Both the position numbers and the translations under genes were made by a program. A DNA stretch of 64,000 nt, taken from Sedimentisphaerales bacterium. Its GTDB lineage: Bacteria > Planctomycetota > Phycisphaerae > Sedimentisphaerales > Anaerobacaceae. Where the stretch lies: NCBI GenBank assembly GCA_963708075.1, contig OY970194.1:3584001-3648000 (forward strand). Reading direction: 5' to 3'. Below are positions 40,452 through 51,887 of the stretch, piece after piece (the stretch's first letter is position 1; each line of letters opens with the position of its first letter). Under the pieces are notes generated by a model. It saw only the letters and a program-made list of their open reading frames with translations. It made no database searches and had not been told where the DNA came from.

Positions 40452-41156
40452 CTACCAGACGCCGGGGATCAGGCGGCGGGGAACTCGGGCGGCGTAGTCT
40501 TTGTAGCCTGGCAGTTCCTTTTGGAGCGTTCTGTCCTCCAGGATGGTTCGCACCACGAGGACTACCGTCGCGACGGCGGATGGGATCAGGGCGTACAAGG
40601 AGCCTAAGGACAGGGGAATGCCGGCCATCATGAAGAGGGCGCCGAGGTAGAGGGGGTGGCGGACGACGGCATAGGGGCCGGTGTCGATCACTTTGTGGCC
40701 TCGCTCGGTCTGGATTCGCACGCTCGGCTCGGCGAACTTGTTGACGCTCTCGGCCCAGATGGAAATGAGGTAGCCGATGCACAGCAGGATGTAGCCGAGG
40801 ACGATCAGCCAGGGCGGAACGCTGGACCAGTGGAATCGGCCGGAGTCGAAGGCGGCTAATGGGAACATCGCGGCGAATGAGAGCATCAGCGGCACGATCA
40901 GCGCTTTGTCCCAGCGTTTCGTGCCCGCACCGAACATCCTGCTTCGGGCAGCGAAGATTTCGGGGTTGGTGCGCCGCAGATAGATGATGCTCGGGACCGT
41001 CAAGACGAAGAAGACCAGGAGAAAGAGCCAGCCTTTCCACCAGCGGATATCGCCGGCGGGGAGGAAGATCAGGACGCCGAGAACGACGAAGGATATCCCA
41101 AGCGAGAGAATACCCCGCCCAAGCACGGCCGTCGGTCCCCGTTGTCCATCTGACAT
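40452..41156 (-). CDS. Isoprenylcysteine carboxyl methyltransferase family membrane protein
   Basis: Multiple TM segments; VRIQTERGHKVIDTGPYAVVRHPLY; EDRTLQKELPGYKDY. Confidence 0.9.
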   Translation of the reverse strand: MSDGQRGPTAVLGRGILSLGISFVVLGVLIFLPAGDIRWWKGWLFLLVFFVLTVPSIIYLRRTNPEIFAARSRMFGAGTKRWDKALIVPLMLSFAAMFPLAAFDSGRFHWSSVPPWLIVLGYILLCIGYLISIWAESVNKFAEPSVRIQTERGHKVIDTGPYAVVRHPLYLGALFMMAGIPLSLGSLYALIPSAVATVVLVVRTILEDRTLQKELPGYKDYAARVPRRLIPGVW

Positions 41157-41345
41157 GTCCCTGACCCTCCCTGCTGACTCTTCCGACTCGTCCTGTAGAG
41201 CGTAGAGAACGCATAACTCGATTGTAGGCCCGGGCCAGGCGAAAGGCAAACGGAATCAAGATGGCGGTCGATACACGTGTCGCAAGGATTACTTACGTGC
41301 CTGTGGCGGGCCAACAAAAAAAGACGTGCAGCACCCGGATTTCGC

Positions 41346-41374
41346 TTGACAGGAAGTCTCGATGTTCGTATAGT
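41346..41374 (+). promoter_or_regulatory. Near-consensus sigma-70 promoter facing the repeat array
   Basis: TTGACA-N17-TATAGT. Confidence 0.8.
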
Positions 41375-41553
41375 ATCTAAACAACTGAATAGAGAATCAT
41401 GGGCAGCGGTTTCGGAGGATCATGAGCGGCAAGATGCAAGTCCGCGTCAGTGGCCACAATACCCCAAAGTCCATCGCGGAGGCGCGGGAAATGAGATCAG
41501 AACCAATCCCCCCATGGATCATCTCCGCAGTCTGTGTGGCGAGGAATCTGTAT

Positions 41554-42099
41554 GTGAAACAAAGCCAATTGCGGGCCGGGGCTCTGGGATTGCGGATTGT
41601 CGATTGCGGAGTGCGGATTGAAGGACGGATGCCGGCAATGACACACATGCGCGGCGCGCAGAACGAGGCCAATTCGGCACGCCGGGGTCGGCCGCGAAAC
41701 AAAGCCAATTTTGGGAAGGATAGGTTATCTGGGAACAATAGAACATTGCGTGCGGGGCAGTCCCACCGCGAGCAGCCTTTGCGAAATAAAGCCAATTGCC
41801 ATGGCAAGACAAGGCCGAGACGGCCTCGCCACGCGGCTCCCGGCGAGTTGTGCGAAACAAAGCCAATCTATTGGCAGAGGGCAGCAGGCGAGAGGCGGCA
41901 GGCTGAAGGAAACTGCACGGATGACTCTGCGAAACAAAGCCAACTGGAGAGGCTGGAATTAACCCTAAGTCCTTTGTGGTAAAGCGGTTACGTTCAATTC
42001 CGCGAGAATGCGAAACAAAGCCAATTCCCGGACCGGGCTGCTGGCAGGCAATCCGGGGCGAGCGGGGACGCCGGCCCTGCTGCGCGAAACAAAGCCAAC
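41554..42099 (+). repeat. Array of eight 16-nt direct repeats (GCGAAACAAAGCCAAY) with unique spacers
   Basis: Copies start at 41554, 41658, 41694, 41781, 41852, 41929, 42010 and 42084; spacers are 88, 20, 71, 55, 61, 65 and 58 nt. Confidence 0.92.
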
Positions 42100-42114
42100 T
42101 GGCGGATGAGCGAT

Positions 42115-42165
42115 ATCAAAAAGCACGCCGGTCGAGGCGGGAGAGCTTTCCTGCCTCGACCGGCG
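42115..42165 (-). terminator. Intrinsic terminator of the GEVED gene; also closes the repeat array region
   Basis: Stem CGCCGGTCGAGGC.../...GCCTCGACCGGCG (42126-42165), followed on the minus strand by TGCTTTTTG. Confidence 0.7.
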
Positions 42166-42219: not shown

Positions 42220-44421
42220 TTACTTGGCCGGAGGTCTCTCGAAGGTGTTCCAGGCGACGCCTTCCGACTTCCACACCGCAGGCTGGCGCTCCAGCGTCAG
42301 TCTCTCAGTTTCGCTCATGGTATAGATGTGGCGATTCAGGCTGGCGGACCAGAAGCGATAGACGGGCTTTGTCCCGGCGGCCTTACTCTCCGGCGGGTAG
42401 GCGTAGAACACGATGCCTTCGTACTTCCACACGGTAGGAAAGTCGCGAATCAGTGAGGCCTTCTCAGTCTCGCTGATCGTGTAGAAGTATGCGTTATTCT
42501 TCGCGGAATAGAAGCGGTAGATCGGCGCCAGATTGGGATTGCCGGACTGTTGTCCGCCCTGATTCGTCAGTAATTCGAAGGCAAGGTCCCACTTGGTACC
42601 CCTGGGGTACTCGACAGACTCCCCCGCCAGCCAGCGGGCGCCGATGACCGGAGGCCAGGAGCCGGTGGATGAGCTGCCGGCGGCGACCTGTGAGACACGG
42701 GCTGCGGCGTTGTTGAAGGAGTACGGCCGGGTCGTCCAGCCCCATGGATTCAAAGGCGTGGGTGCACCCGTGTCATAAACGGCGGCGATGCTCAGCCAGT
42801 AAACGGTGGGCACCGATGCGCCGGTGGACCCGGTTGTCGGACTTTGATAGAACCATTCGTCCTGAGACAGCAGGCAGGTGAACTGGAAGCAGGTTTCGCC
42901 GCGATTGATCCCCCGCGGGTCGTCATCCTGCCCCGCCAGGTTCCACGTCCAGTGCGTACAATACGTCTCCCAGAGGAGGGTATTGGGGTGATTCGAATCG
43001 GCGGTCTTTCCGGGCGCATCCGTCCAAATGCCGATATGGAAAGCCAGCGGCTGCACGGACGGCAGCATGGGCTTGGTCCAGCTCTGGAAGGAGCCCCACC
43101 ACTGGAACCCCGTGATCGGCCGCTCATCGGTGCACTGCCAGTCATCGGCGTTGATCTGATGCAGATGCAGGCCGGAGACCTCGTCCCATCCACGGAATAT
43201 GAATGGCGTGGCGGCATCGGAACTCTGGGCCGGCTGGCTCCATTTGAGACCTCCCTTGCCGGCATTGGTTTGCGGCTCAAAGTCGCGCACCGCGGAAACC
43301 TTGTAGTCCTCCACCTCGCCATCCTGCGCCGGACCATAATAGGGCAACAGGCCCCGGGTGTTGAAACGGAACCTTGCATAGGTATCGCCGGGGGCAACGG
43401 TTGCCGGAATGCGGAAGGAAAGGTGGTTTACGCCGCTCCTGAGCAGCACATCCTCGAATATCTGCTCATCCCTGCCATCGAAACTGCCATCGCCGTCGAA
43501 ATCCATCCACGCATTCAGATAGCCCTGGACAGAGGCCGTCACGTCAATGGTGGCGGTTTCCCCGGGCGACAGGCTGCTGGTGAATTGAACTCCATCCTCG
43601 TCGTCGCGATCGTCGTCATCGCCGGTGGCGGACGCGGTCGGCCTGCCGTTGGACTCGGTGTCGACGCCGGCTCCCAGGTAGACCCCGGCGGAGACCAGGT
43701 GCCGGGCTCCATTGCTGGCGAGGGTAGTTCCATAGGAATCGGGAGCATCGCCATAGTCCTGCTGTGTCGGCTGCTGGGTGCCTCCGTCAGAGTCGCCGCC
43801 TTTGGCCCGGCATTCGCGCATGACCCCGCGATGGATATCGACGTTCCTTCCGCGGATATCGATCGAGACCCAGTCCGGGTTGTACTGCCCGATCGTAAGC
43901 TCCTTGTTTGGCTCCACGGATCCGGGGTTCTCCGGATTTCCTAGGAATACACTGTCGAGGGCCTGGAACTCCTCGCTGTCCATATACTTGGCTTCATCGC
44001 TTTCCGTCGGCGCATCGTCCGGCAAGGGGGGCCGGTTGCGGCCGAGTTGGGACCACTGCGGCGTAGCCCAATTGAAGCGGACATCGAAAGACACGCTTCT
44101 GGCGTAGTCGTTAGCCGTGATGAACACCCTGTAATATAGCAATCCTTCCCGATCGGGGCTGTACGGCTCGTTGTAGAACCACTGTCTCCAGCATCCGCTG
44201 GCAGGGTAATAATACCACGTGCCGCCGCCGTAACCGTCGCCCTCGCCCTGCACGTAGTCACCATTGTGATCCAGGACAATGCGGAAGAAAGAGCCCGGAA
44301 ACGCGCTCGGGTCTATCTCGAAGATCAAGTCGCGCGAATCGGCCCGGGCGGTGGAGCAGAAAAACGCGAGAATGAGGAACAGCAGCCATATCGGCAGTGG
44401 TCTGGATTGCGACTCGTTCAT
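42220..44421 (-). CDS. Secreted GEVED-domain protein with C-terminal P(I/V)YRF(Y/W) repeats (DUF5648-like)
   Basis: RBS AAGGAG; signal peptide MNESQSRPLPIWLLFLILAFFCSTARA; DYGDAPDSYGT, YLNAWMDFDGDG, TYARFRF, GEVEDY; two P(I/V)YRF repeats. Confidence 0.85.
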   Translation of the reverse strand: MNESQSRPLPIWLLFLILAFFCSTARADSRDLIFEIDPSAFPGSFFRIVLDHNGDYVQGEGDGYGGGTWYYYPASGCWRQWFYNEPYSPDREGLLYYRVFITANDYARSVSFDVRFNWATPQWSQLGRNRPPLPDDAPTESDEAKYMDSEEFQALDSVFLGNPENPGSVEPNKELTIGQYNPDWVSIDIRGRNVDIHRGVMRECRAKGGDSDGGTQQPTQQDYGDAPDSYGTTLASNGARHLVSAGVYLGAGVDTESNGRPTASATGDDDDRDDEDGVQFTSSLSPGETATIDVTASVQGYLNAWMDFDGDGSFDGRDEQIFEDVLLRSGVNHLSFRIPATVAPGDTYARFRFNTRGLLPYYGPAQDGEVEDYKVSAVRDFEPQTNAGKGGLKWSQPAQSSDAATPFIFRGWDEVSGLHLHQINADDWQCTDERPITGFQWWGSFQSWTKPMLPSVQPLAFHIGIWTDAPGKTADSNHPNTLLWETYCTHWTWNLAGQDDDPRGINRGETCFQFTCLLSQDEWFYQSPTTGSTGASVPTVYWLSIAAVYDTGAPTPLNPWGWTTRPYSFNNAAARVSQVAAGSSSTGSWPPVIGARWLAGESVEYPRGTKWDLAFELLTNQGGQQSGNPNLAPIYRFYSAKNNAYFYTISETEKASLIRDFPTVWKYEGIVFYAYPPESKAAGTKPVYRFWSASLNRHIYTMSETERLTLERQPAVWKSEGVAWNTFERPPAK

Positions 44422-44613
44422 GAATAAGCTCCTTAAGGCAGTTTTCCTTTGGGTGATGTCCCATCCATGGCAAGACGCGTTCTGCTGTCCGAACACACAT
44501 CCTGTGCGGAACGCCGGTATGGAATCGGCGTTTGACTGACCCTCCTCCAGAAAATCAGTGGCACATGCGCGAGACCTCTCTCCGTAGGGGTCCTCCAACC
44601 GGCTGGTGCCGAT

Positions 44614-44642
44614 AATATACGGCGACAGCGATTGGAAATCAA
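44614..44642 (-). promoter_or_regulatory. Putative sigma-70 promoter for the GEVED gene
   Basis: Minus strand TTGATT-N17-TATATT. Confidence 0.55.
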
Positions 44643-45114
44643 GTGCCAGGAACGCACTTTTGGTAACGGAAATAACCGGAAATCCGGAAACTTTTCTGGA
44701 GCGACCCTCATGGCAAAGGCGAGGCCTCCGGACGCGATGCAGGTGATGTCGGCCATCAGCAGATGCTTGGGTGCCCAAGGCTGCCACACGTCCGAAAATA
44801 TGATTCCAACTGGACTTACGAGTGCTGACGGTGTAGATTGAAGGCATCCTGCCCCACTGGCGGCCGGCCGACAGAGGAGCAGCATCGCTCTCGGGGGATG
44901 CTTCCCTTGGTTTATCAGTTCGCAGTCAGGCATGATATAGAGATGCCCGGGCCGGACAGTATTTCTGTGTCTTGGATACGAGCGGATCGGTACGCAACAG
45001 CCGGCCTGCGGAAGGTCCGATATGCAAGTGCCCGCAAGGGCAAACGCAGTACGGGTCTTGTGCGTACGTAGAAGATCGAGCGGCTGAAAGCCGCGGAGAC
45101 AGAAGGATGTGACT

Positions 45115-46710: not shown

Positions 46711-46902
46711 AGTCAGAGTCGGTTTTCGGATAGTTTCCAAGCATTTCATATCTCCCGGGGGCAGCGTTTCACGTCCTCTTGGGGGTCGAACGGGCCGTCG
46801 TTCGGGATTTTCCTGCGGTTTCGAGGCTGACCTAACCTGTGATTTTTGCGCGGCTTGCGTCACGGTGCAGCTTGCGCCGGGCGCAAATATCGCGCCCGGG
46901 TG

Positions 46903-46931
46903 TTGACAACGGACGCGCCATCCCTTATAGT
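46903..46931 (+). promoter_or_regulatory. Sigma-70 promoter of rex
   Basis: TTGACA-N17-TATAGT. Confidence 0.8.
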
Positions 46932-46945
46932 AGCCCGGCCTTGTT

Positions 46946-46963
46946 TTGTGAATGTGAACACAA
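46946..46963. promoter_or_regulatory. Rex operator
   Basis: TTGTGAATGTGAACACAA, 12/14 match to TTGTGAA-N4-TTCACAA, lying between the promoter and the rex start. Confidence 0.75.
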
Positions 46964-46988
46964 GTACGAAGTGTTCGTAGTGCTGGAC

Positions 46989-47633
46989 ATGCGGTATCAC
47001 AGAATTCCGGATGAAACGGTTCGGCGGTTGCCCGTGTATTTGCGAGGCCTGATGGTTTCTGCAAACCAGGGCGAGCGGTATATCTCCAGCCAGGCCCTGG
47101 CGGATTTCGTGGGCGTGAACTCCTGGCAGATCCGCAAGGATTTCTCATACTTCGGCGACTTTGGCACGCGCGGCGTCGGCTACGATATTGAGAAGCTGGC
47201 CAGGGAAATCAAGAAGATCCTCCGCCTGGATGTGATCCGCAGGGCCGCTCTGATAGGCGTGGGCGATCTGGGCTCGGCGCTGCTGGCGTATCCGGGTTTC
47301 GGCGTATACGGTCTGGACATCGCGGCCGCCTTCGATGTCGACCCGAAGAAAATCGGCACGACGATGAACAACGGGATCACGATCGAGGATTTCGCCCGGA
47401 TCGATACGGTGAAGGAGCGTGACATCAGCCTGGCGATCATCGCGGTCCCCCGTGCGGCGGCGCAGCCTGCCGTCGATAAACTCGTGGCCACCGGAATCAA
47501 GGGGATTCTGAACTTCGCCCCGTGCAAGGTCAGCGTCCCCAAGCGGGTCAAAGTGATCACGCTGGATATCGCGATGGAGTTGGCTCGTCTGCCCTACTAT
47601 ATTCCTCGGGCCGGGCGGACGGAGGAGCCATAG
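46989..47633 (+). CDS. rex: Redox-sensing transcriptional repressor Rex
   Basis: IPDETVRRLPVYLR, QIRKDFSYFGDFGTRGVGY, IGVGDLG, GIKGILNFAP. Confidence 0.96.
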   Translation: MRYHRIPDETVRRLPVYLRGLMVSANQGERYISSQALADFVGVNSWQIRKDFSYFGDFGTRGVGYDIEKLAREIKKILRLDVIRRAALIGVGDLGSALLAYPGFGVYGLDIAAAFDVDPKKIGTTMNNGITIEDFARIDTVKERDISLAIIAVPRAAAQPAVDKLVATGIKGILNFAPCKVSVPKRVKVITLDIAMELARLPYYIPRAGRTEEP

Positions 47634-47638
47634 CGGCC

Positions 47639-47717
47639 GAGATTGCTTCGCTACGCTCGCAATGACATAGACAGGTACTGTATGTCATTGTGAGGAGCAC
47701 AGCGACGAAGCAATCTC
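47639..47717. repeat. GTCATTG(C/T)GAG-type REP-like pair (second locus)
   Basis: GAGATTGCTTCGCTACGCTCGCAATGACA ... TGTCATTGTGAGGAGCACAGCGACGAAGCAATCTC. Confidence 0.8.
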
Positions 47718-47796
47718 CGGTCACGCGATTTGCAGGATGAGGTTGTGCGTAATGGTCGGAAATGGTTTTTGAGGCTTTTGGAGCCGGGATTTTCGC

Positions 47797-48831
47797 ATGA
47801 GTGTAAAGAAGATAACGAAGGATGATTTTGCGAAGTTTGTCGATGCCTTGATCAAGACGGAGAAGACCATCGGCGTGCAGGCGAAGGGCGACCGGTTCGA
47901 CTTTGCCCCGCTGGAATCGGCGAAGGATCTGCGTCTGGACTATGACGTGACGCTTCAGCCGCCCAAGAAGTTCTTCCTGCCCCCGGCGGAGGTGCTCCTG
48001 ACGTATGAGGTCGGCGGCCCCTACCAGTCGCAATGCGGCGCCGAGAAGTTCATCCTCCTTGGCGTGCATCCCTACGATGTGATCGCCATCAACCAGATGG
48101 ATGAGCTGTTCCGGCAGGACAACTACGACACGCACTACATGACGCGCCGGAATAACGCAACGATCATCGCCTGTGACGTGGCCAGAGCGTCCGACAACGT
48201 CTTCGCATCCTCCATGGGGACCGCCGTCGCGGAGGAAGGTTACGACATTCTGCTGACGGACATCGGCGATGCCTACGTGGCGGAGGCCGCGACACCGAAG
48301 GGCGAGCAACTGTTGGCCAAGGCCAAAGGCGCCCCGGCCGATGCGAAGGCCCTGAACAAGAGAGAGGACGTCTGGGCCCGCAACAGAAAGTCCCTGAACA
48401 AGCACGAGCTCAAGTGCGATCCCGCCTATCTGCCCAAGCTTCTTGCCAAGGCATACAAGCATCCCATCTGGGAGGAGAGGGCCAAGACGTGCTTCTCGTG
48501 CGGCTCGTGCAACCAGGTCTGCCCCACATGCTACTGCTTCAACGTGCAGGACGACGTGAGCTGGGACCTCCAGACCGGCCAGCGATCGCGGGCCTGGGAC
48601 GGCTGCCTGCTCGACGGATTCACCAAGGTCGCACCGGCCCATGAATTCCGCAAGGCCAGGGCCGACCGGTTCAGGCACCGATTGTACCGCAAGGCCAAGT
48701 ACGTCCCGGAGAAGATCGGCGGCCAGATCGCCTGTGTCGGCTGCGGACGCTGCATCGGCGCGTGCCTGCCGGACATCGCGAACCCCGTAAGCGCATACAA
48801 CCGCCTGATCGATGACCTGGGGATCGGCTGA
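47797..48831 (+). CDS. hydB: Group 3b [NiFe]-hydrogenase (sulfhydrogenase) beta subunit, 4Fe-4S dicluster
   Basis: CFSCGSCNQVCPTCYCF and CVGCGRCIGAC; AsrA/HydB-like PPKKFFLPP. Confidence 0.88.
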   Translation: MSVKKITKDDFAKFVDALIKTEKTIGVQAKGDRFDFAPLESAKDLRLDYDVTLQPPKKFFLPPAEVLLTYEVGGPYQSQCGAEKFILLGVHPYDVIAINQMDELFRQDNYDTHYMTRRNNATIIACDVARASDNVFASSMGTAVAEEGYDILLTDIGDAYVAEAATPKGEQLLAKAKGAPADAKALNKREDVWARNRKSLNKHELKCDPAYLPKLLAKAYKHPIWEERAKTCFSCGSCNQVCPTCYCFNVQDDVSWDLQTGQRSRAWDGCLLDGFTKVAPAHEFRKARADRFRHRLYRKAKYVPEKIGGQIACVGCGRCIGACLPDIANPVSAYNRLIDDLGIG

Positions 48832-48836
48832 AAGCA

Positions 48837-48916
48837 ATTGATGATGGATGATTGATAATTGATGATTGGTCCAGTGGCCAGCATCAATAATCAATCATCA
48901 ATAATCCATAATCAAT
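48837..48916. repeat. Inverted heptamer arrays (ATTGATG)n ... (ATCAATA)n
   Basis: About five units on each side of a short spacer, inside the hydrogenase operon. Confidence 0.8.
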
Positions 48917-48928
48917 AGGAGTCCACTA

Positions 48929-49768
48929 ATGTGTGAGTGTTGTACTCAAAAGAAAGACATCTACCTGCCGCAGATGGCGACCGTCGACGACGTGAGCCAG
49001 ATGAACGTCACGGAGAAGTACCTGCGGCTCTCCATGGATGACGGCCAGTTCGATTTCATTCCCGGCCAGTTCGTGGAGGTCTCGATCGCCGGATTCGGTG
49101 AGGCCCCGATCACGATCAGCTCGTCGCCGACGCTTGCGGACAGCTTTGAGCTGGTGGTTCGCAAGATCGGCCGGGTCAGCGGCGCCATCCACGGCCTCAA
49201 ACGCGGCGACAAGCTCGGCATCCGCGGGCCGCTCGGCAAAGGCATCTATCCCGTGGACGAGGCCAAGGGCAAGAACCTGGTCTTCGTCTGCGGCGGTCTC
49301 GGCCTGGTGCCGCAGCGGTCGTTCATCAACTACGTGCTCGACAATCGCGGCGACTACGGCGACGTGGCCATCCTCCAGGGAACCAAGTCCTACGACATGC
49401 GGCTGTTCACCTCCGAGATCGAGGCCTGGAGCAAGCGCGGCGACGTGCAGATCCTCGAAACCCTCGATGAAGGCGATGCACGCTGGAAGGGCAACGTCGG
49501 CGTCGTGACCAAGCTGGTTTCCAAGGTCGAGACCGATCTCAAGTCGGCCACGATCCTGGTCTGCGGCCCGCCGATCATGTACAAGTTCGTGCTGATGGCC
49601 CTGGCCGATCACAACGTGCCGCACGAGAACATCTTCCTGAACCTCGAACGGAAAATGAAATGCGGCGTAGGCAAGTGCGGGCATTGCCAGATCAACAACG
49701 CGTATGTCTGCATGTCCGGCCCGGTGTTCCGATATTCTGATTTGGCTTCTCTGCCGGAGGCGATTTAA
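48929..49768 (+). CDS. hydG: Group 3b hydrogenase gamma subunit (FAD/NAD(P)-binding, 2Fe-2S)
   Basis: PGQFVEVSI, GIRGPLGKG, GGLGLVP, CGPPIM, ERKMKCGVGKCGHC...C. Confidence 0.9.
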   Translation: MCECCTQKKDIYLPQMATVDDVSQMNVTEKYLRLSMDDGQFDFIPGQFVEVSIAGFGEAPITISSSPTLADSFELVVRKIGRVSGAIHGLKRGDKLGIRGPLGKGIYPVDEAKGKNLVFVCGGLGLVPQRSFINYVLDNRGDYGDVAILQGTKSYDMRLFTSEIEAWSKRGDVQILETLDEGDARWKGNVGVVTKLVSKVETDLKSATILVCGPPIMYKFVLMALADHNVPHENIFLNLERKMKCGVGKCGHCQINNAYVCMSGPVFRYSDLASLPEAI

Positions 49769-49770
49769 CA

Positions 49771-50523
49771 ATGGCGAAACCCAAAATTGCGATATTCGAT
49801 TTTGCCTGCTGCGAAGGATGTCAGCTCCAGATCGTCAACCTCGAAGAGGAGATTCTCAGTCTCCTCGGAGGCGCCGACGTCGTGGAGTGGCGCGAGGCAA
49901 TGAGTGAAAAGAGTGACGAGTATGACATTGCCATCATCGAAGGTTCGATCACCCGCCTGGAGGATGAGGAGCGGATCAAGATGATCCGAAGCCGGGCCAA
50001 GGTGCTGATCGCCCTGGGTGCCTGCGCGGTGATCGGCGGGATCAATAAGCTCAAGAACAACTTTGACCTCGATGAGGTCAAGAAGTGCGTTTACGGCAAG
50101 GCGGCCGGCAAACCGCACCTGAGAACGGGTCCGACCAAGGCGGTCGGCGAGGTCGTGCAGGTGGACTACGCCGTGCCCGGCTGCCCCATCGACAGGAAAG
50201 AATTCACGTACATCGTGCGATCCCTGCTGATGGGCAAGAAGCCGGAGATTCCCGATTACCCCGTCTGCGTCGAGTGCAAGGCCGCCGGCAATCCGTGCCT
50301 GTGGCAATACGATCAGGTGTGCCTCGGGCCCATCATCCGCGCCGGCTGCGGGGCTCGGTGCCCGTCGAACGGGTTCCGTTGCTTCGGCTGCCGGGGCTAC
50401 GTCGATAATGCGAACGTAGACGCGGCGAAAGATGTCATCACCCGGTACGGCCTGAACATCGACGATCTGAAGACCAAGATGGTTCTCTTTGGCAGCAAAC
50501 AGGAGCCGACGATCTATGAGTAA
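49771..50523 (+). CDS. hydD: Group 3b hydrogenase delta (small) subunit
   Basis: CCEGC, EGSI, LGACA, PGCP, VCVEC, CLGP...GCGARCP...CFGCRG. Confidence 0.9.
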   Translation: MAKPKIAIFDFACCEGCQLQIVNLEEEILSLLGGADVVEWREAMSEKSDEYDIAIIEGSITRLEDEERIKMIRSRAKVLIALGACAVIGGINKLKNNFDLDEVKKCVYGKAAGKPHLRTGPTKAVGEVVQVDYAVPGCPIDRKEFTYIVRSLLMGKKPEIPDYPVCVECKAAGNPCLWQYDQVCLGPIIRAGCGARCPSNGFRCFGCRGYVDNANVDAAKDVITRYGLNIDDLKTKMVLFGSKQEPTIYE

Positions 50524-51826
50524 AGGCACAGTCAGTATAAACGTACATCACGTGACCCGCATCGAAGGGCACGGCAATATCGTTCTCAACGCCAAGAACG
50601 GCAAGATCGAGAAGCTCGAGTGGCAGGTGCCCGAGGCACCCCGCTTCTTCGAGGCCATGATGCGCGGACGCAGCTACGAGGACATCCAGACCATCGTCAG
50701 CCGAATCTGCGGCATCTGCTCGATCTCCCACTCCCTCGTGGCGACCAAGGCGGTCGAGAACGCCATCGGCGTCGAGGTCACCGAGCAGACGGACAAGATT
50801 CGGCTGCTCATGCACTTCTCGGAGCAGTTCCAGAGCCACGTGCTGCACGTCGGCTACCTGGTGGCCCCCGATCTCTTCAACGCTCCGTCGGTCGTGCCGC
50901 TTGTGGCGAAGGCCCCCGACGCGGTCAAGACGATCATTGGCCTGCATCGCCTGGCGAATGAATGGTCCGACCTGATCGCCGGGCGGACGACGCACCCGGT
51001 GACGCTGCGTCCGGGCGGAATGACGAAGATCCCCACCGAAGCACAGCTTCGTGACCTGCAGGACCGGCTCAAGAAGTGCATGCCGGCCGTCAAGGTCGTG
51101 GCCGATGTCGTGCTTTCCGCCGCCGGCGCGCTGCCGAATTTCGAGCGGCCGACCGAGTACATCTCGCTCAAGCAGGGTAATCCGCCCACCTATACCTTCT
51201 ATCACGGCGAGATCGGCTCGACCGACTACGACAGTACCGTGCCGGTCAACGCGTGGAAGACGGTAGCCAATGAGTACGTGAACGATCAATCGACCGCCAA
51301 GTGGACAAAATGGCATCGCGATTCCTACGCCGTCGGGGCGCTGGCCCGGTTCAACAACAATGCGGAGATGCTGTCGCCCACGGCCAAAGCCGTCGCGAAA
51401 ATGTTCGGCCTCAAGAAAGGCTGCTGCAACCCCTACATGAACAGCGTTGCCCAGCTTGCCGAGGCCGTCCACGTCGTGGAGACAGCGATCCAATTGATCG
51501 ATGAGCTTCTGACGACGGGCTTGAAGCAGGAAACGGTCCGGGTCAGTCCGAGGGCCGGCAAGGCCAGCGGCGCCGTCGAGGCGCCTCGCGGCATCCTGTT
51601 CCATGAGTATGAGTTCGATCGCAAGGGCACCTGCGTCGGCGCGGATGTCTGCATTCCGACGAATCAGAATCATGCGAATATCCAGAAGGATTTTGAGAAG
51701 CTCGTGCCGGAGATCCTTGACGAGAGCGAGGACTCCATCCGGCTGAAGCTGGAGATGCTGGTTCGCGCGTACGACCCATGTGTGTCCTGCTCGACACACA
51801 TGCTGGACGTGCAGTTCGTTAAGTGA
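50516..51826 (+). CDS. hydA: Group 3b [NiFe]-hydrogenase alpha (large) subunit
   Basis: TRIEGHG; L1 SRICGICSISH; EAPRG; L2 RAYDPCVSCSTH followed by a short C-terminal tail. Confidence 0.95.
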   Translation: MSKGTVSINVHHVTRIEGHGNIVLNAKNGKIEKLEWQVPEAPRFFEAMMRGRSYEDIQTIVSRICGICSISHSLVATKAVENAIGVEVTEQTDKIRLLMHFSEQFQSHVLHVGYLVAPDLFNAPSVVPLVAKAPDAVKTIIGLHRLANEWSDLIAGRTTHPVTLRPGGMTKIPTEAQLRDLQDRLKKCMPAVKVVADVVLSAAGALPNFERPTEYISLKQGNPPTYTFYHGEIGSTDYDSTVPVNAWKTVANEYVNDQSTAKWTKWHRDSYAVGALARFNNNAEMLSPTAKAVAKMFGLKKGCCNPYMNSVAQLAEAVHVVETAIQLIDELLTTGLKQETVRVSPRAGKASGAVEAPRGILFHEYEFDRKGTCVGADVCIPTNQNHANIQKDFEKLVPEILDESEDSIRLKLEMLVRAYDPCVSCSTHMLDVQFVK

Positions 51827-51887
51827 AGTTTGAAGTGTGAAGTTTGATGTTTGATGTTGAAAATCAGAAATCAAAAATCAGACTTCA
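51824..51887. repeat. Heptamer arrays (TGAAGTT/TGATGTT)n ... (AAATCAG)n
   Basis: Begins at the large-subunit stop codon and overlaps the 5' end of the protease gene. Confidence 0.65.

Follow-up and report, generated by a model that had tools for sequence, protein, structure and literature searches.

The 64,000-nt stretch of Sedimentisphaerales bacterium DNA analysed here (contig OY970194.1 of assembly GCA_963708075.1, positions 3,584,001 to 3,648,000 of the forward strand; referred to as the window) carries, between positions 41346 and 42165, a promoter, a leader and an array in which copies of a 16-nt motif alternate with spacers of 20 to 88 nt. An initial annotation, made from the letters alone, had described a promoter-driven array with unique spacers and no cas genes, whose transcript might be processed into guide-like RNAs or act as a protein sponge, or which might belong to a mobile family with its protein encoded elsewhere. 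We compared the window array with the whole source genome (G000), a single contig of 7.52 Mb, and found that the locus is one of 41 one-directional mosaic arrays in which the motif alternates with diverged, shared and reshuffled families of modules. Moreover, the motif is not confined to the genus; it is a conserved element directly downstream of a multicopy gene encoding a domain of about 180 amino acids (the N-domain). The locus has the following features, with the motif copies taken from a pattern search unless stated otherwise.

40452..41249, minus strand: divergent neighbour, a PEMT/ICMT-like methyltransferase (domain search)
41346..41374, plus strand: sigma-70-like promoter TTGACA-N17-TATAGT, 11 of 12 consensus positions
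41375..41553, plus strand: leader, about 180 nt long, in which GGAGGA (41414-41419) and ATG (41422) occur, from the sequence
41381..41397, plus strand: conserved leader start ACAACTGAATAGAGAAT, presumed first transcribed bases, recurring upstream of arrays
41422..41982, plus strand: open frame of 186 codons from the leader ATG, no Pfam match
41554..41569, plus strand: motif copy 1, GTG variant
41570..41657, plus strand: GATTGCG-heptamer family module (in a blastn cluster with 38 members from 20 arrays)
41658..41673, plus strand: degenerate motif copy GCAGAACGAGGCCAAT, 4 mismatches
41694..41709, plus strand: motif copy
41710..41780, plus strand: module (blastn cluster of 3 spacers from 3 arrays)
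41781..41796, plus strand: motif copy, AAT variant
41797..41851, plus strand: module (large chained blastn cluster of 86 spacers from 36 arrays)
41852..41867, plus strand: motif copy
41868..41928, plus strand: module (blastn cluster of 5 spacers from 5 arrays)
41929..41944, plus strand: motif copy
41945..42009, plus strand: core of an 81-nt module (..AAGTCCTTTGTGG.AAAG.GGTTAYG..), an nhmmer profile family
42010..42025, plus strand: motif copy
42026..42083, plus strand: module (blastn cluster of 6 spacers from 6 arrays)
42084..42099, plus strand: last motif copy
42126..42165, minus strand: hairpin with 20-nt arms, 90% complementary, then a T-run on the minus strand (from the sequence)
42220..44847, minus strand: convergent neighbour, an 875-aa DUF7901/GEVED/DUF5648 protein (domain search)

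With GCGAAACAAAGCCAAY as the query and at most one mismatch, seven same-strand copies were found in the window (starting at 41554, 41694, 41781, 41852, 41929, 42010 and 42084), whereas shuffled sequences gave a mean of 0.88 copies and 0 of 100 shuffles reached seven. The eighth copy of the initial annotation, at 41658, was missed even when three mismatches were allowed and surfaces only as a partial relative (repeat family D3). As had been reported, the repeats fall into three reading frames of the overlapping open reading frames (ORFs). Four runs, all of short DNA contigs, were compared with the locus. At position 41787, where the AAT variant has T, the DNA contigs of runs X2 and X3 have C and one X2 contig has A. 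A 256-nt contig from X2, another sample of the same study, joins 41692-41853 straight to 41556-41642 (units 3 and 4, then the module of unit 1) each piece differing at one or two letters; this single contig, at a depth of 3.1, is suggestive of another unit order in some strain or of a duplication.

A scan of the whole genome with a 15-mer of the motif (≤1 mismatch) yielded 253 copies, 99 on the plus and 154 on the minus strand, and the reversed pattern used as a control yielded none. The 41 multi-copy arrays contain 2 to 13 copies each, and every array is confined to a single strand; with up to three mismatches allowed inside arrays, 291 array copies were counted. Conservation extends from about −5 to +17 around the 16-mer (about 22 nt), roughly (A)TT.T GCGAAACAAAGCCAAT T, and the core TGCGAAACAAAGCCAATT is asymmetric and A-rich with a G+C content of 42%. 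The spacers have 63% G+C and 57% purine, and the array strand overall contains 15.5% T. A reading of the reversed motif as a sigma-54 promoter was rejected by inspection, since the spacing is wrong (GG-N9-GC versus N10).

The spacers had been described as unrelated, but they are not. Among the 291 spacers of the genome, which range from 17 to 253 nt, 163 cluster with another spacer by blastn, with 1,828 same-strand pairs versus 98 opposite-strand pairs. Certain unit lengths recur (87 nt 28 times, 34 nt 12 times, 77 nt 11 times, 81 and 63 nt 10 times each; n = 250 units), and a relationship between equally long units of different arrays is visible. Of the seven window spacers, blastn groups five with spacers from other arrays, and a profile search adds a sixth (41945-42009). 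The best blastn relative of module 41570..41657 lies at 7460075-7460144 of G000 (92.9% identity over 70 nt), and that of module 41868..41928 lies at 7459986-7460026 (90% over 41 nt). Modules of the GATTGCG-heptamer family are often the first array unit and head other arrays, too; this first unit often carries a G-rich run of the heptamer, as at 41588-41622 of the window. The 81-nt module is present in nine copies in G000 (nhmmer, E ≤3.5e-9) and was also detected by nhmmer in loci of other genomes (for example L059, L100, L116, L118 and L102), and window unit 41929-42025 aligns with 40 copies from G000 and other genomes (alignment A2, 41 sequences). It is this module, with its core at 41945..42009, that is conserved outside the genus beside the N-domain gene.

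A recognisable sense promoter was found at 23 of the 41 arrays; the upstream flanks fall into classes, and the conserved promoters are of the sigma-70, extracytoplasmic function (ECF) or sigma-54 type. Six arrays, including that of the window, have TTGAC-N-TA..RT followed by ACAACTGAATAG.GAAT, and the composite pattern 'TTGAC..TA..RT..CAAC.GAAT' matches the genome six times, each time upstream of an array, with the window promoter among the six. Preserved hexamers combined with variable intervening sequence in these promoters point to selection for expression. The ECF-like pattern TG[CT]AAC/TGAAAC-N14-17-GCGTCT has 23 genome matches, 15 of them upstream of arrays, and TGGCAC-N5-TTGC[AT] has 16 matches, two of them upstream of arrays. 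The 12-mer of the leader start (≤1 mismatch) matches 18 times in the genome, six of these 104 to 191 nt upstream of arrays, and we infer that transcription of the window array starts near 41381. Both the near-perfect sigma-70 promoter and the length of the leader given in the initial annotation agree with the sequence, and the description of a promoter-headed, one-directional array that is not conserved at the protein level is borne out by the composite promoter pattern.

In many leaders, short A/C-rich tandem heptamers are followed by GGAGG-ATG/GTG before the first repeat. Runs of short G-poor tandem repeats just before the Shine-Dalgarno (SD) sequence were seen in ECF-type leaders of G000 and in leaders of L065, L071 and L083, the repeat being AAATCAA in G000 and TTAACCA or TAAATC in low-GC relatives. 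Elsewhere in the genome, blastn found nothing related to the window leader, and a profile comparison with the N-domain family revealed nothing shared beyond the motif. A leader peptide was considered as well, as many leaders begin with codons that resemble how the N-domain starts, M-[ST]-x-[EQK]-A-[QR]-[VI]; when the window ORF was compared with the profile of the family by hhalign, nothing was found there, and the resemblance stays an impression.

No common terminator was found downstream of the arrays, and the next gene's own promoter often follows. The hairpin at 42126-42165, proposed as the end of the array, does exist with the arms given above, but nothing like it was found at other arrays of the genome and it is thus not a shared array feature. 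Because TGCTTTTTG comes next on the minus strand, we read it as the likely terminator of the convergent 875-aa gene, outside the array family, although the terminator scan did not list it. Hairpins followed by CCTACG, similar to repetitive extragenic palindromes (REPs) of the GTAG type and sometimes in inverted pairs, were seen in and around arrays (downstream of array 6281107 and upstream of arrays 6217792 and 6492610 in G000, and in L096 and L097). A tRNA-Leu(taa) gene (G000:C1:5762842-5762925) lies about 250 to 300 nt downstream of array 5762230, and a tRNA gene (L078:3579-3650) likewise lies downstream of the L078 array in an unrelated genome, which may be coincidence. The wider neighbourhood of the window array encodes ClpB, an epimerase, a Rex-like regulator and hydrogenase subunits: at 46839-51874, a Rex-like redox regulator (CoA_binding and Put_DNA-bind_N domains) adjoins a hydrogenase-type cluster with Fer4_22, FAD/NAD-binding, Oxidored_q6 and NiFeSe_Hases domains. 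The ORFs of at least 200 aa scanned between 33.7 and 51.9 kb contained no cas, transposase or integrase domain, in line with the reported absence of cas genes.

Nine arrays of G000 directly follow a multicopy ORF, and the genome holds ten matches to its N-domain. The gene-bearing repeat of about 1.7 kb has sharp ends and unrelated flanks and consists, in this order, of an ECF-like promoter, a leader with AAATCAA repeats, an SD-ATG, the domain of about 180 aa, the array and a shared terminal unit. Neither terminal inverted repeats nor target duplications are visible at its ends. The other arrays, that of the window included, have kept promoter, leader and SD-ATG without the domain, and the leaders of ECF-type arrays are 72 to 80% identical to that of the gene-bearing unit. 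The shared terminal unit of about 150 nt (G000:C1 about 942040-942185 and six other gene-linked arrays) has a T-arm-like end, GCGG(C/T)TCGAATCCGCCACC; a tRNA was considered because of the GGYTCGAATCC in this end and rejected, since ARAGORN called no tRNA or tmRNA.

The domain family is very large, with 24,160 cluster representatives at E ≤1e-3 and 7,316 at E ≤1e-10. In the variable tails of homologues, the peptides AKQSQ, CETKPI/CETNPI and RNKAN are found; they are translations of the DNA motif in its three frames. The AlphaFold2 model of the domain is all-helical (predicted local distance difference test score 77.6) and had no Foldseek match in the PDB at E ≤0.001, the ESM Atlas clusters are annotated as 'hypothetical protein' only, and PADLOC gave 0 matches for five members. 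We examined the 80 best genomic loci of the N-domain gene, mostly from metagenome-assembled genomes (MAGs) labelled Pirellulales, Phycisphaerae, Sedimentisphaerales or Planctomycetota and a few labelled Alphaproteobacteria, Bryobacterales, Verrucomicrobiota or Actinomycetota. A sense AAAC[AG]AA[CG]CCAA was present within 1.2 kb downstream of the gene in 60 of 74 loci, with at least two copies in 40 of 74, whereas a copy upstream was found in only 2 of 72 and an antisense copy downstream in 14 of 74. Of the 15 loci displayed, 10 have an ORF that stops ahead of the first motif, and the array there is therefore downstream non-coding sequence. Such loci typically consist of a motif, a module of about 78 to 91 nt and another motif, sometimes with tandem motif runs of 10 to 11 nt, and the module aligns with the 81-nt unit of the window (alignment A2). 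Among 81 flanking ORFs from 44 loci, no recurrent family was found, and there is no transposase, integrase or reverse transcriptase near the N-domain loci or the window array. Beside one locus in a Pirellulales MAG, an ORF (L067:3476-4240, plus strand) gave a weak Pfam hit to an ATLF (metalloprotease-like) domain (E = 1.5e-6, just above the cutoff), and L025:168-223 (minus strand; G000:C1:940268-940323) matches the nhaA-I (Na+) riboswitch with 49.2 bits against a gathering score of 37 (E = 4.6e-7). The mobile-family option of the initial annotation, with the protein encoded elsewhere, is the one of its proposals that fits best, as the motif downstream is a hallmark of this multicopy gene family.

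The libraries and literature searched contained no description of either the motif or the N-domain protein family: the motif strings retrieved only unrelated primers, and keyword searches on repeats of Planctomycetes retrieved nothing on the element. In Rfam 15, the window region had no match at E ≤1 except a chance hairpin hit, and nothing was found within the arrays of 17 other loci at E ≤0.1, which is in line with the initial annotation's view of the element as a candidate undescribed one.

Within the genus, the 15-mer (≤1 mismatch) is present in all 23 other genomes, with 3 to 692 copies, and does not rise above background in the order's other families. N-domain gene matches range from 0 to 22 per genome and correlate with the motif counts (Spearman 0.70 for 24 genomes, which are related and not independent). 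Low-copy genomes have about 1 to 3 motifs per gene but five or six species have 12 to 32; therefore, the gene-linked state is taken as ancestral and the stand-alone arrays as lineage-specific amplification. At orthologues of the PEMT-like gene in G013 and G007 (68 to 69% amino acid identity), a divergent array with other units is present, whereas G005 has no array within 1.5 kb of the orthologous site. The arrays in G013 and G007 were counted as long retention. In a scan of the phylum with GAAACRAASCCAAW, 300 genomes had 0 to 4 matches each, but this pattern is too strict for CAAAACAAACCC variants and the scan thus says little about the range of the motif.

Taken together, the window array is probably a transcribed, non-coding member of the gene-linked repeat family in which the motif serves as a linear recognition site, a reading that rests on the genome-wide family with its shared modules, the conserved promoters, the single orientation and the link to the gene; the long retention at the orthologous sites was counted in its favour. 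How it would work is more tentative. The array would be transcribed from its own conserved promoter into a long, largely unstructured, non-coding RNA, and the motif copies, in which alone the array is strongly constrained, would be linear single-stranded recognition sites for one trans-acting factor, most plausibly the family's own protein or an endonuclease of the RNase E type. RNase E prefers to cleave at RN|WUU, and GCCAA|UU in the motif fits this preference, which makes such an enzyme a candidate. Such a transcript would either be cleaved into pieces the size of a module or serve as a multivalent binder, and the modules would not be guides against foreign DNA, since none of them matched phage or plasmid sequences. 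As a mechanism, we regard this whole sequence of steps as possible but, taken alone, still short of probable. Precedents for a protein gene in cis with a tandem RNA array, in which a repeated short A-rich or loop motif is the cleavage or binding site, are type III toxin-antitoxin systems such as ToxI and the CsrB-like RNAs. ToxI repeats are identical 36-nt units upstream of a gene for a beta-rich endoribonuclease, and the motifs of CsrB are GGA in hairpin loops. Here, in contrast, the units are heterogeneous, the RNA is unstructured, the protein is all-helical and has no known relatives, and no gene of the endoribonuclease toxin type lies near the window array.

Several findings weigh against the reading as a non-coding RNA with linear recognition sites. 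First, the RNA has no more structure than shuffles: the window array gives z = +0.87 on the sense strand (antisense, +2.59), the 226 units together have mean z values of −0.21 (sense) and −0.10 (antisense) with 10% below −2, and RNAalifold on the 41 copies of the conserved 90-nt module (A2) gave 0 consensus pairs. The six window units have sense z values of −0.64 to +0.65, none below −2, and the small hairpins that had been seen in the spacers are therefore not in excess over chance; a CGTAA...TTAYG stem that was noticed by eye with some compensating changes was dropped, because several sequences break it. Second, the domain of the candidate partner has no match in Pfam, NCBIfam, PADLOC or PDB profiles, and its PHROGs hits are at noise level only. 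Third, motif copy numbers jump among congeners, from 3 to 692, and the content of arrays differs at orthologous sites, both of which are typical of selfish DNA repeats. Fourth, in seven loci of other genomes, an antisense and a sense motif bracket 130 to 270 nt of modules, and low-GC relatives carry the motif in tandem runs of 10 to 11 nt; such pairs and runs would fit recognition at the DNA level equally well. Fifth, in eight of the nine gene-linked arrays (G000:C1: 941601, 1540320, 1880365, 2340339, 2509099, 3264190, 4778930 and 6281107), the ORF of the gene stays open through the whole array up to the shared terminal unit. These arrays differ in their make-up of units, unit lengths that are not multiples of three compensate each other, and several of the ORFs end alike in the terminal unit ('..PRVAYH.HD.A.S.*'). 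Their open frames are not explained by composition alone or by a purely non-coding reading.

A close rival, which we consider possible though rather less than probable, is a selfish or recombination-driven DNA repeat of the NIME, BIME or MITE type (see below), in which a factor resembling a recombinase or transposase, perhaps the N-domain protein itself, uses the motif as its DNA site. Arrays would grow and be reshuffled by insertion, duplication and recombination between motif copies, the domain-less arrays would be deletion derivatives of the gene-bearing unit, and transcription would be incidental. The sharing and reshuffling of modules between arrays, the burst-like copy numbers in the 24 congeners, the differing content of orthologous arrays and the inverted pairs and tandem runs all speak for this, as do the sharp ends and unrelated flanks of the 1.7-kb unit, the similarity of the ECF-type leaders to its leader, the other unit order in the single X2 contig and the lack of a recurrent flanking partner at 44 loci, as expected for a self-contained dispersed unit. 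The agreement in architecture with published NIMEs (PMC1797815) also favours it. On the other hand, promoter elements are kept while the spacers between them diverge, and the motif is co-oriented with promoter or gene in 41 of 41 arrays of G000. Furthermore, the ends of the gene-bearing unit are devoid of inverted repeats and target duplications, transposase, integrase and reverse transcriptase genes are absent nearby, and no library detected a nuclease or recombinase signature in the N-domain protein.

In architecture, the array matches the Neisseria intergenic mosaic elements (NIMEs), in which RS elements of more than 100 families, about 50 to 150 bp long, are flanked by the 20-bp repeat dRS3, arrays are dynamic between strains and the G+C content alternates (PMC1797815). 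In both cases, a short conserved repeat separates many module families of 20 to 200 bp in long intergenic arrays, syntenic arrays vary in the number and content of units, the G+C content alternates between repeat and module (here 42% versus 63%), and a site-specific factor is suspected but unproven (PMC1797815). However, dRS3 is described there as an unoriented inverted repeat of 20 bp (ATTCCC-N8-GGGAAT), whereas the motif here is asymmetric, A-rich and strand specific. Its copies are co-oriented downstream of a conserved promoter and tied to a protein gene family across the phylum, and they have no sequence similarity to the Neisseria elements. The window array thus has the layout of a NIME-type array but is not a member of the NIME family, because its motif is asymmetric, oriented, promoter-headed and gene-linked.

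REPs, whose GTAG-tagged kind goes with RAYT (Y1) transposases, and bacterial interspersed mosaic elements (BIMEs) are likewise intergenic, dispersed and clustered with other motifs, some modules elsewhere in G000 look by eye like GTAG-type REPs (a hairpin, then CCTACG), and GTAG REPs have been reported in Planctomycetes (PMC3733652). Unlike the signature of REPs, a G+C-rich palindrome of 20 to 40 bp with a GTAG or CGTC tag, the motif described here is not palindromic, and the window units have neither excess folding nor, by reading of the sequence, a CTAC-tagged hairpin. Miniature transposable elements with inverted repeats (MITEs) differ in that all copies in the 41 arrays of G000 are direct, with inverted motif pairs only in the seven loci of other genomes, and no target-site duplication was seen at the unit ends. 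Integron cassette arrays differ, too, since no integrase is nearby and units of 34 to 140 nt are too short for cassettes. Among the N-domain-linked motif arrays, the window array shares the motif and the module of about 80 to 90 nt ('..GTAA..TTAYG..') but has no gene directly upstream; it belongs, with most of the 41 arrays, to the members without the domain.

Translation of the window array from the ATG at 41422, yielding a mosaic and disordered tail or peptide of the sort that the gene-linked copies apparently yield, is very improbable. Apart from the open frames of these eight copies, which end in the shared terminal unit, the SD-ATG in many leaders and the deficit of forward-strand stop trinucleotides (407 versus 558 expected from a first-order model) favour translation. 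However, the motif is conserved as nucleotides across all three frames, and the frame at 41422..41982, which reads the repeats in three frames, closes with 78% of the array behind it and does not reach the last two units. Most domain-less arrays have a leader ORF that runs into a stop among the first units, and in low-GC relatives the gene ends before the motifs. The T-poor composition alone yields open runs of 100 to 140 codons in simulations, and therefore long open frames in arrays are largely expected. Thus, the open frame of the window, for which no Pfam match was found, is probably not a gene.

The guide-like system of the initial annotation, in which processing at the repeats would turn unique spacers into small RNAs against foreign nucleic acid, agrees with the promoter at the head, the co-oriented repeats and the lack of a known family but is largely refuted and has a very slight chance of being right, because the spacers are shared modules of widely varying length, none of them matched 50,697 phage or 72,556 plasmid records by BLAST, no cas-like gene is nearby, and 41 arrays with recurring modules occur in one genome. 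The locus does resemble CRISPR arrays in that direct repeats alternate with intervening sequence in a single orientation behind a promoter-bearing leader. CRISPR repeats have a constant length of about 23 to 55 nt and are often partly palindromic, and their spacers are unique and vary little in length; here, the repeat core of 16 to 22 nt is not palindromic, spacers of 17 to 253 nt recur between arrays, and there are no protospacer matches. That it is not a canonical CRISPR had been stated correctly. Overall, the observation made in the initial annotation is partly confirmed and its interpretation is partly supported.

The element is a mosaic intergenic repeat array, which is a known kind, with a motif that is asymmetric, oriented, promoter-headed and gene-linked. 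If the proposed reading is true, it would be a second, independently evolved example of a NIME-type mosaic array, with a candidate partner protein and conserved promoters, which would make the question of RNA versus DNA directly testable. Such arrays can mislead CRISPR finders and gene callers, and many database 'proteins' of the N-domain family have tails that are a motif array read through. It is conceivable, but on present data rather unlikely, that the helical protein of about 180 aa and the motif arrays constitute an undescribed, phylum-wide protein-nucleic acid system, either as a new kind of small mobile element whose protein acts on the motif or as an RNA system. In the latter case, the protein or an RNase may bind or cut the A-rich motif, and some species may have amplified stand-alone, sigma factor-regulated arrays as multivalent RNAs. 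If the main reading is right, a repeat that resembles an orphan CRISPR-like array would be the visible tip of a very large unannotated family whose members are tied to the same short cis motif, and it could help to find out what a common 'hypothetical protein' of Planctomycetota and neighbouring phyla does.

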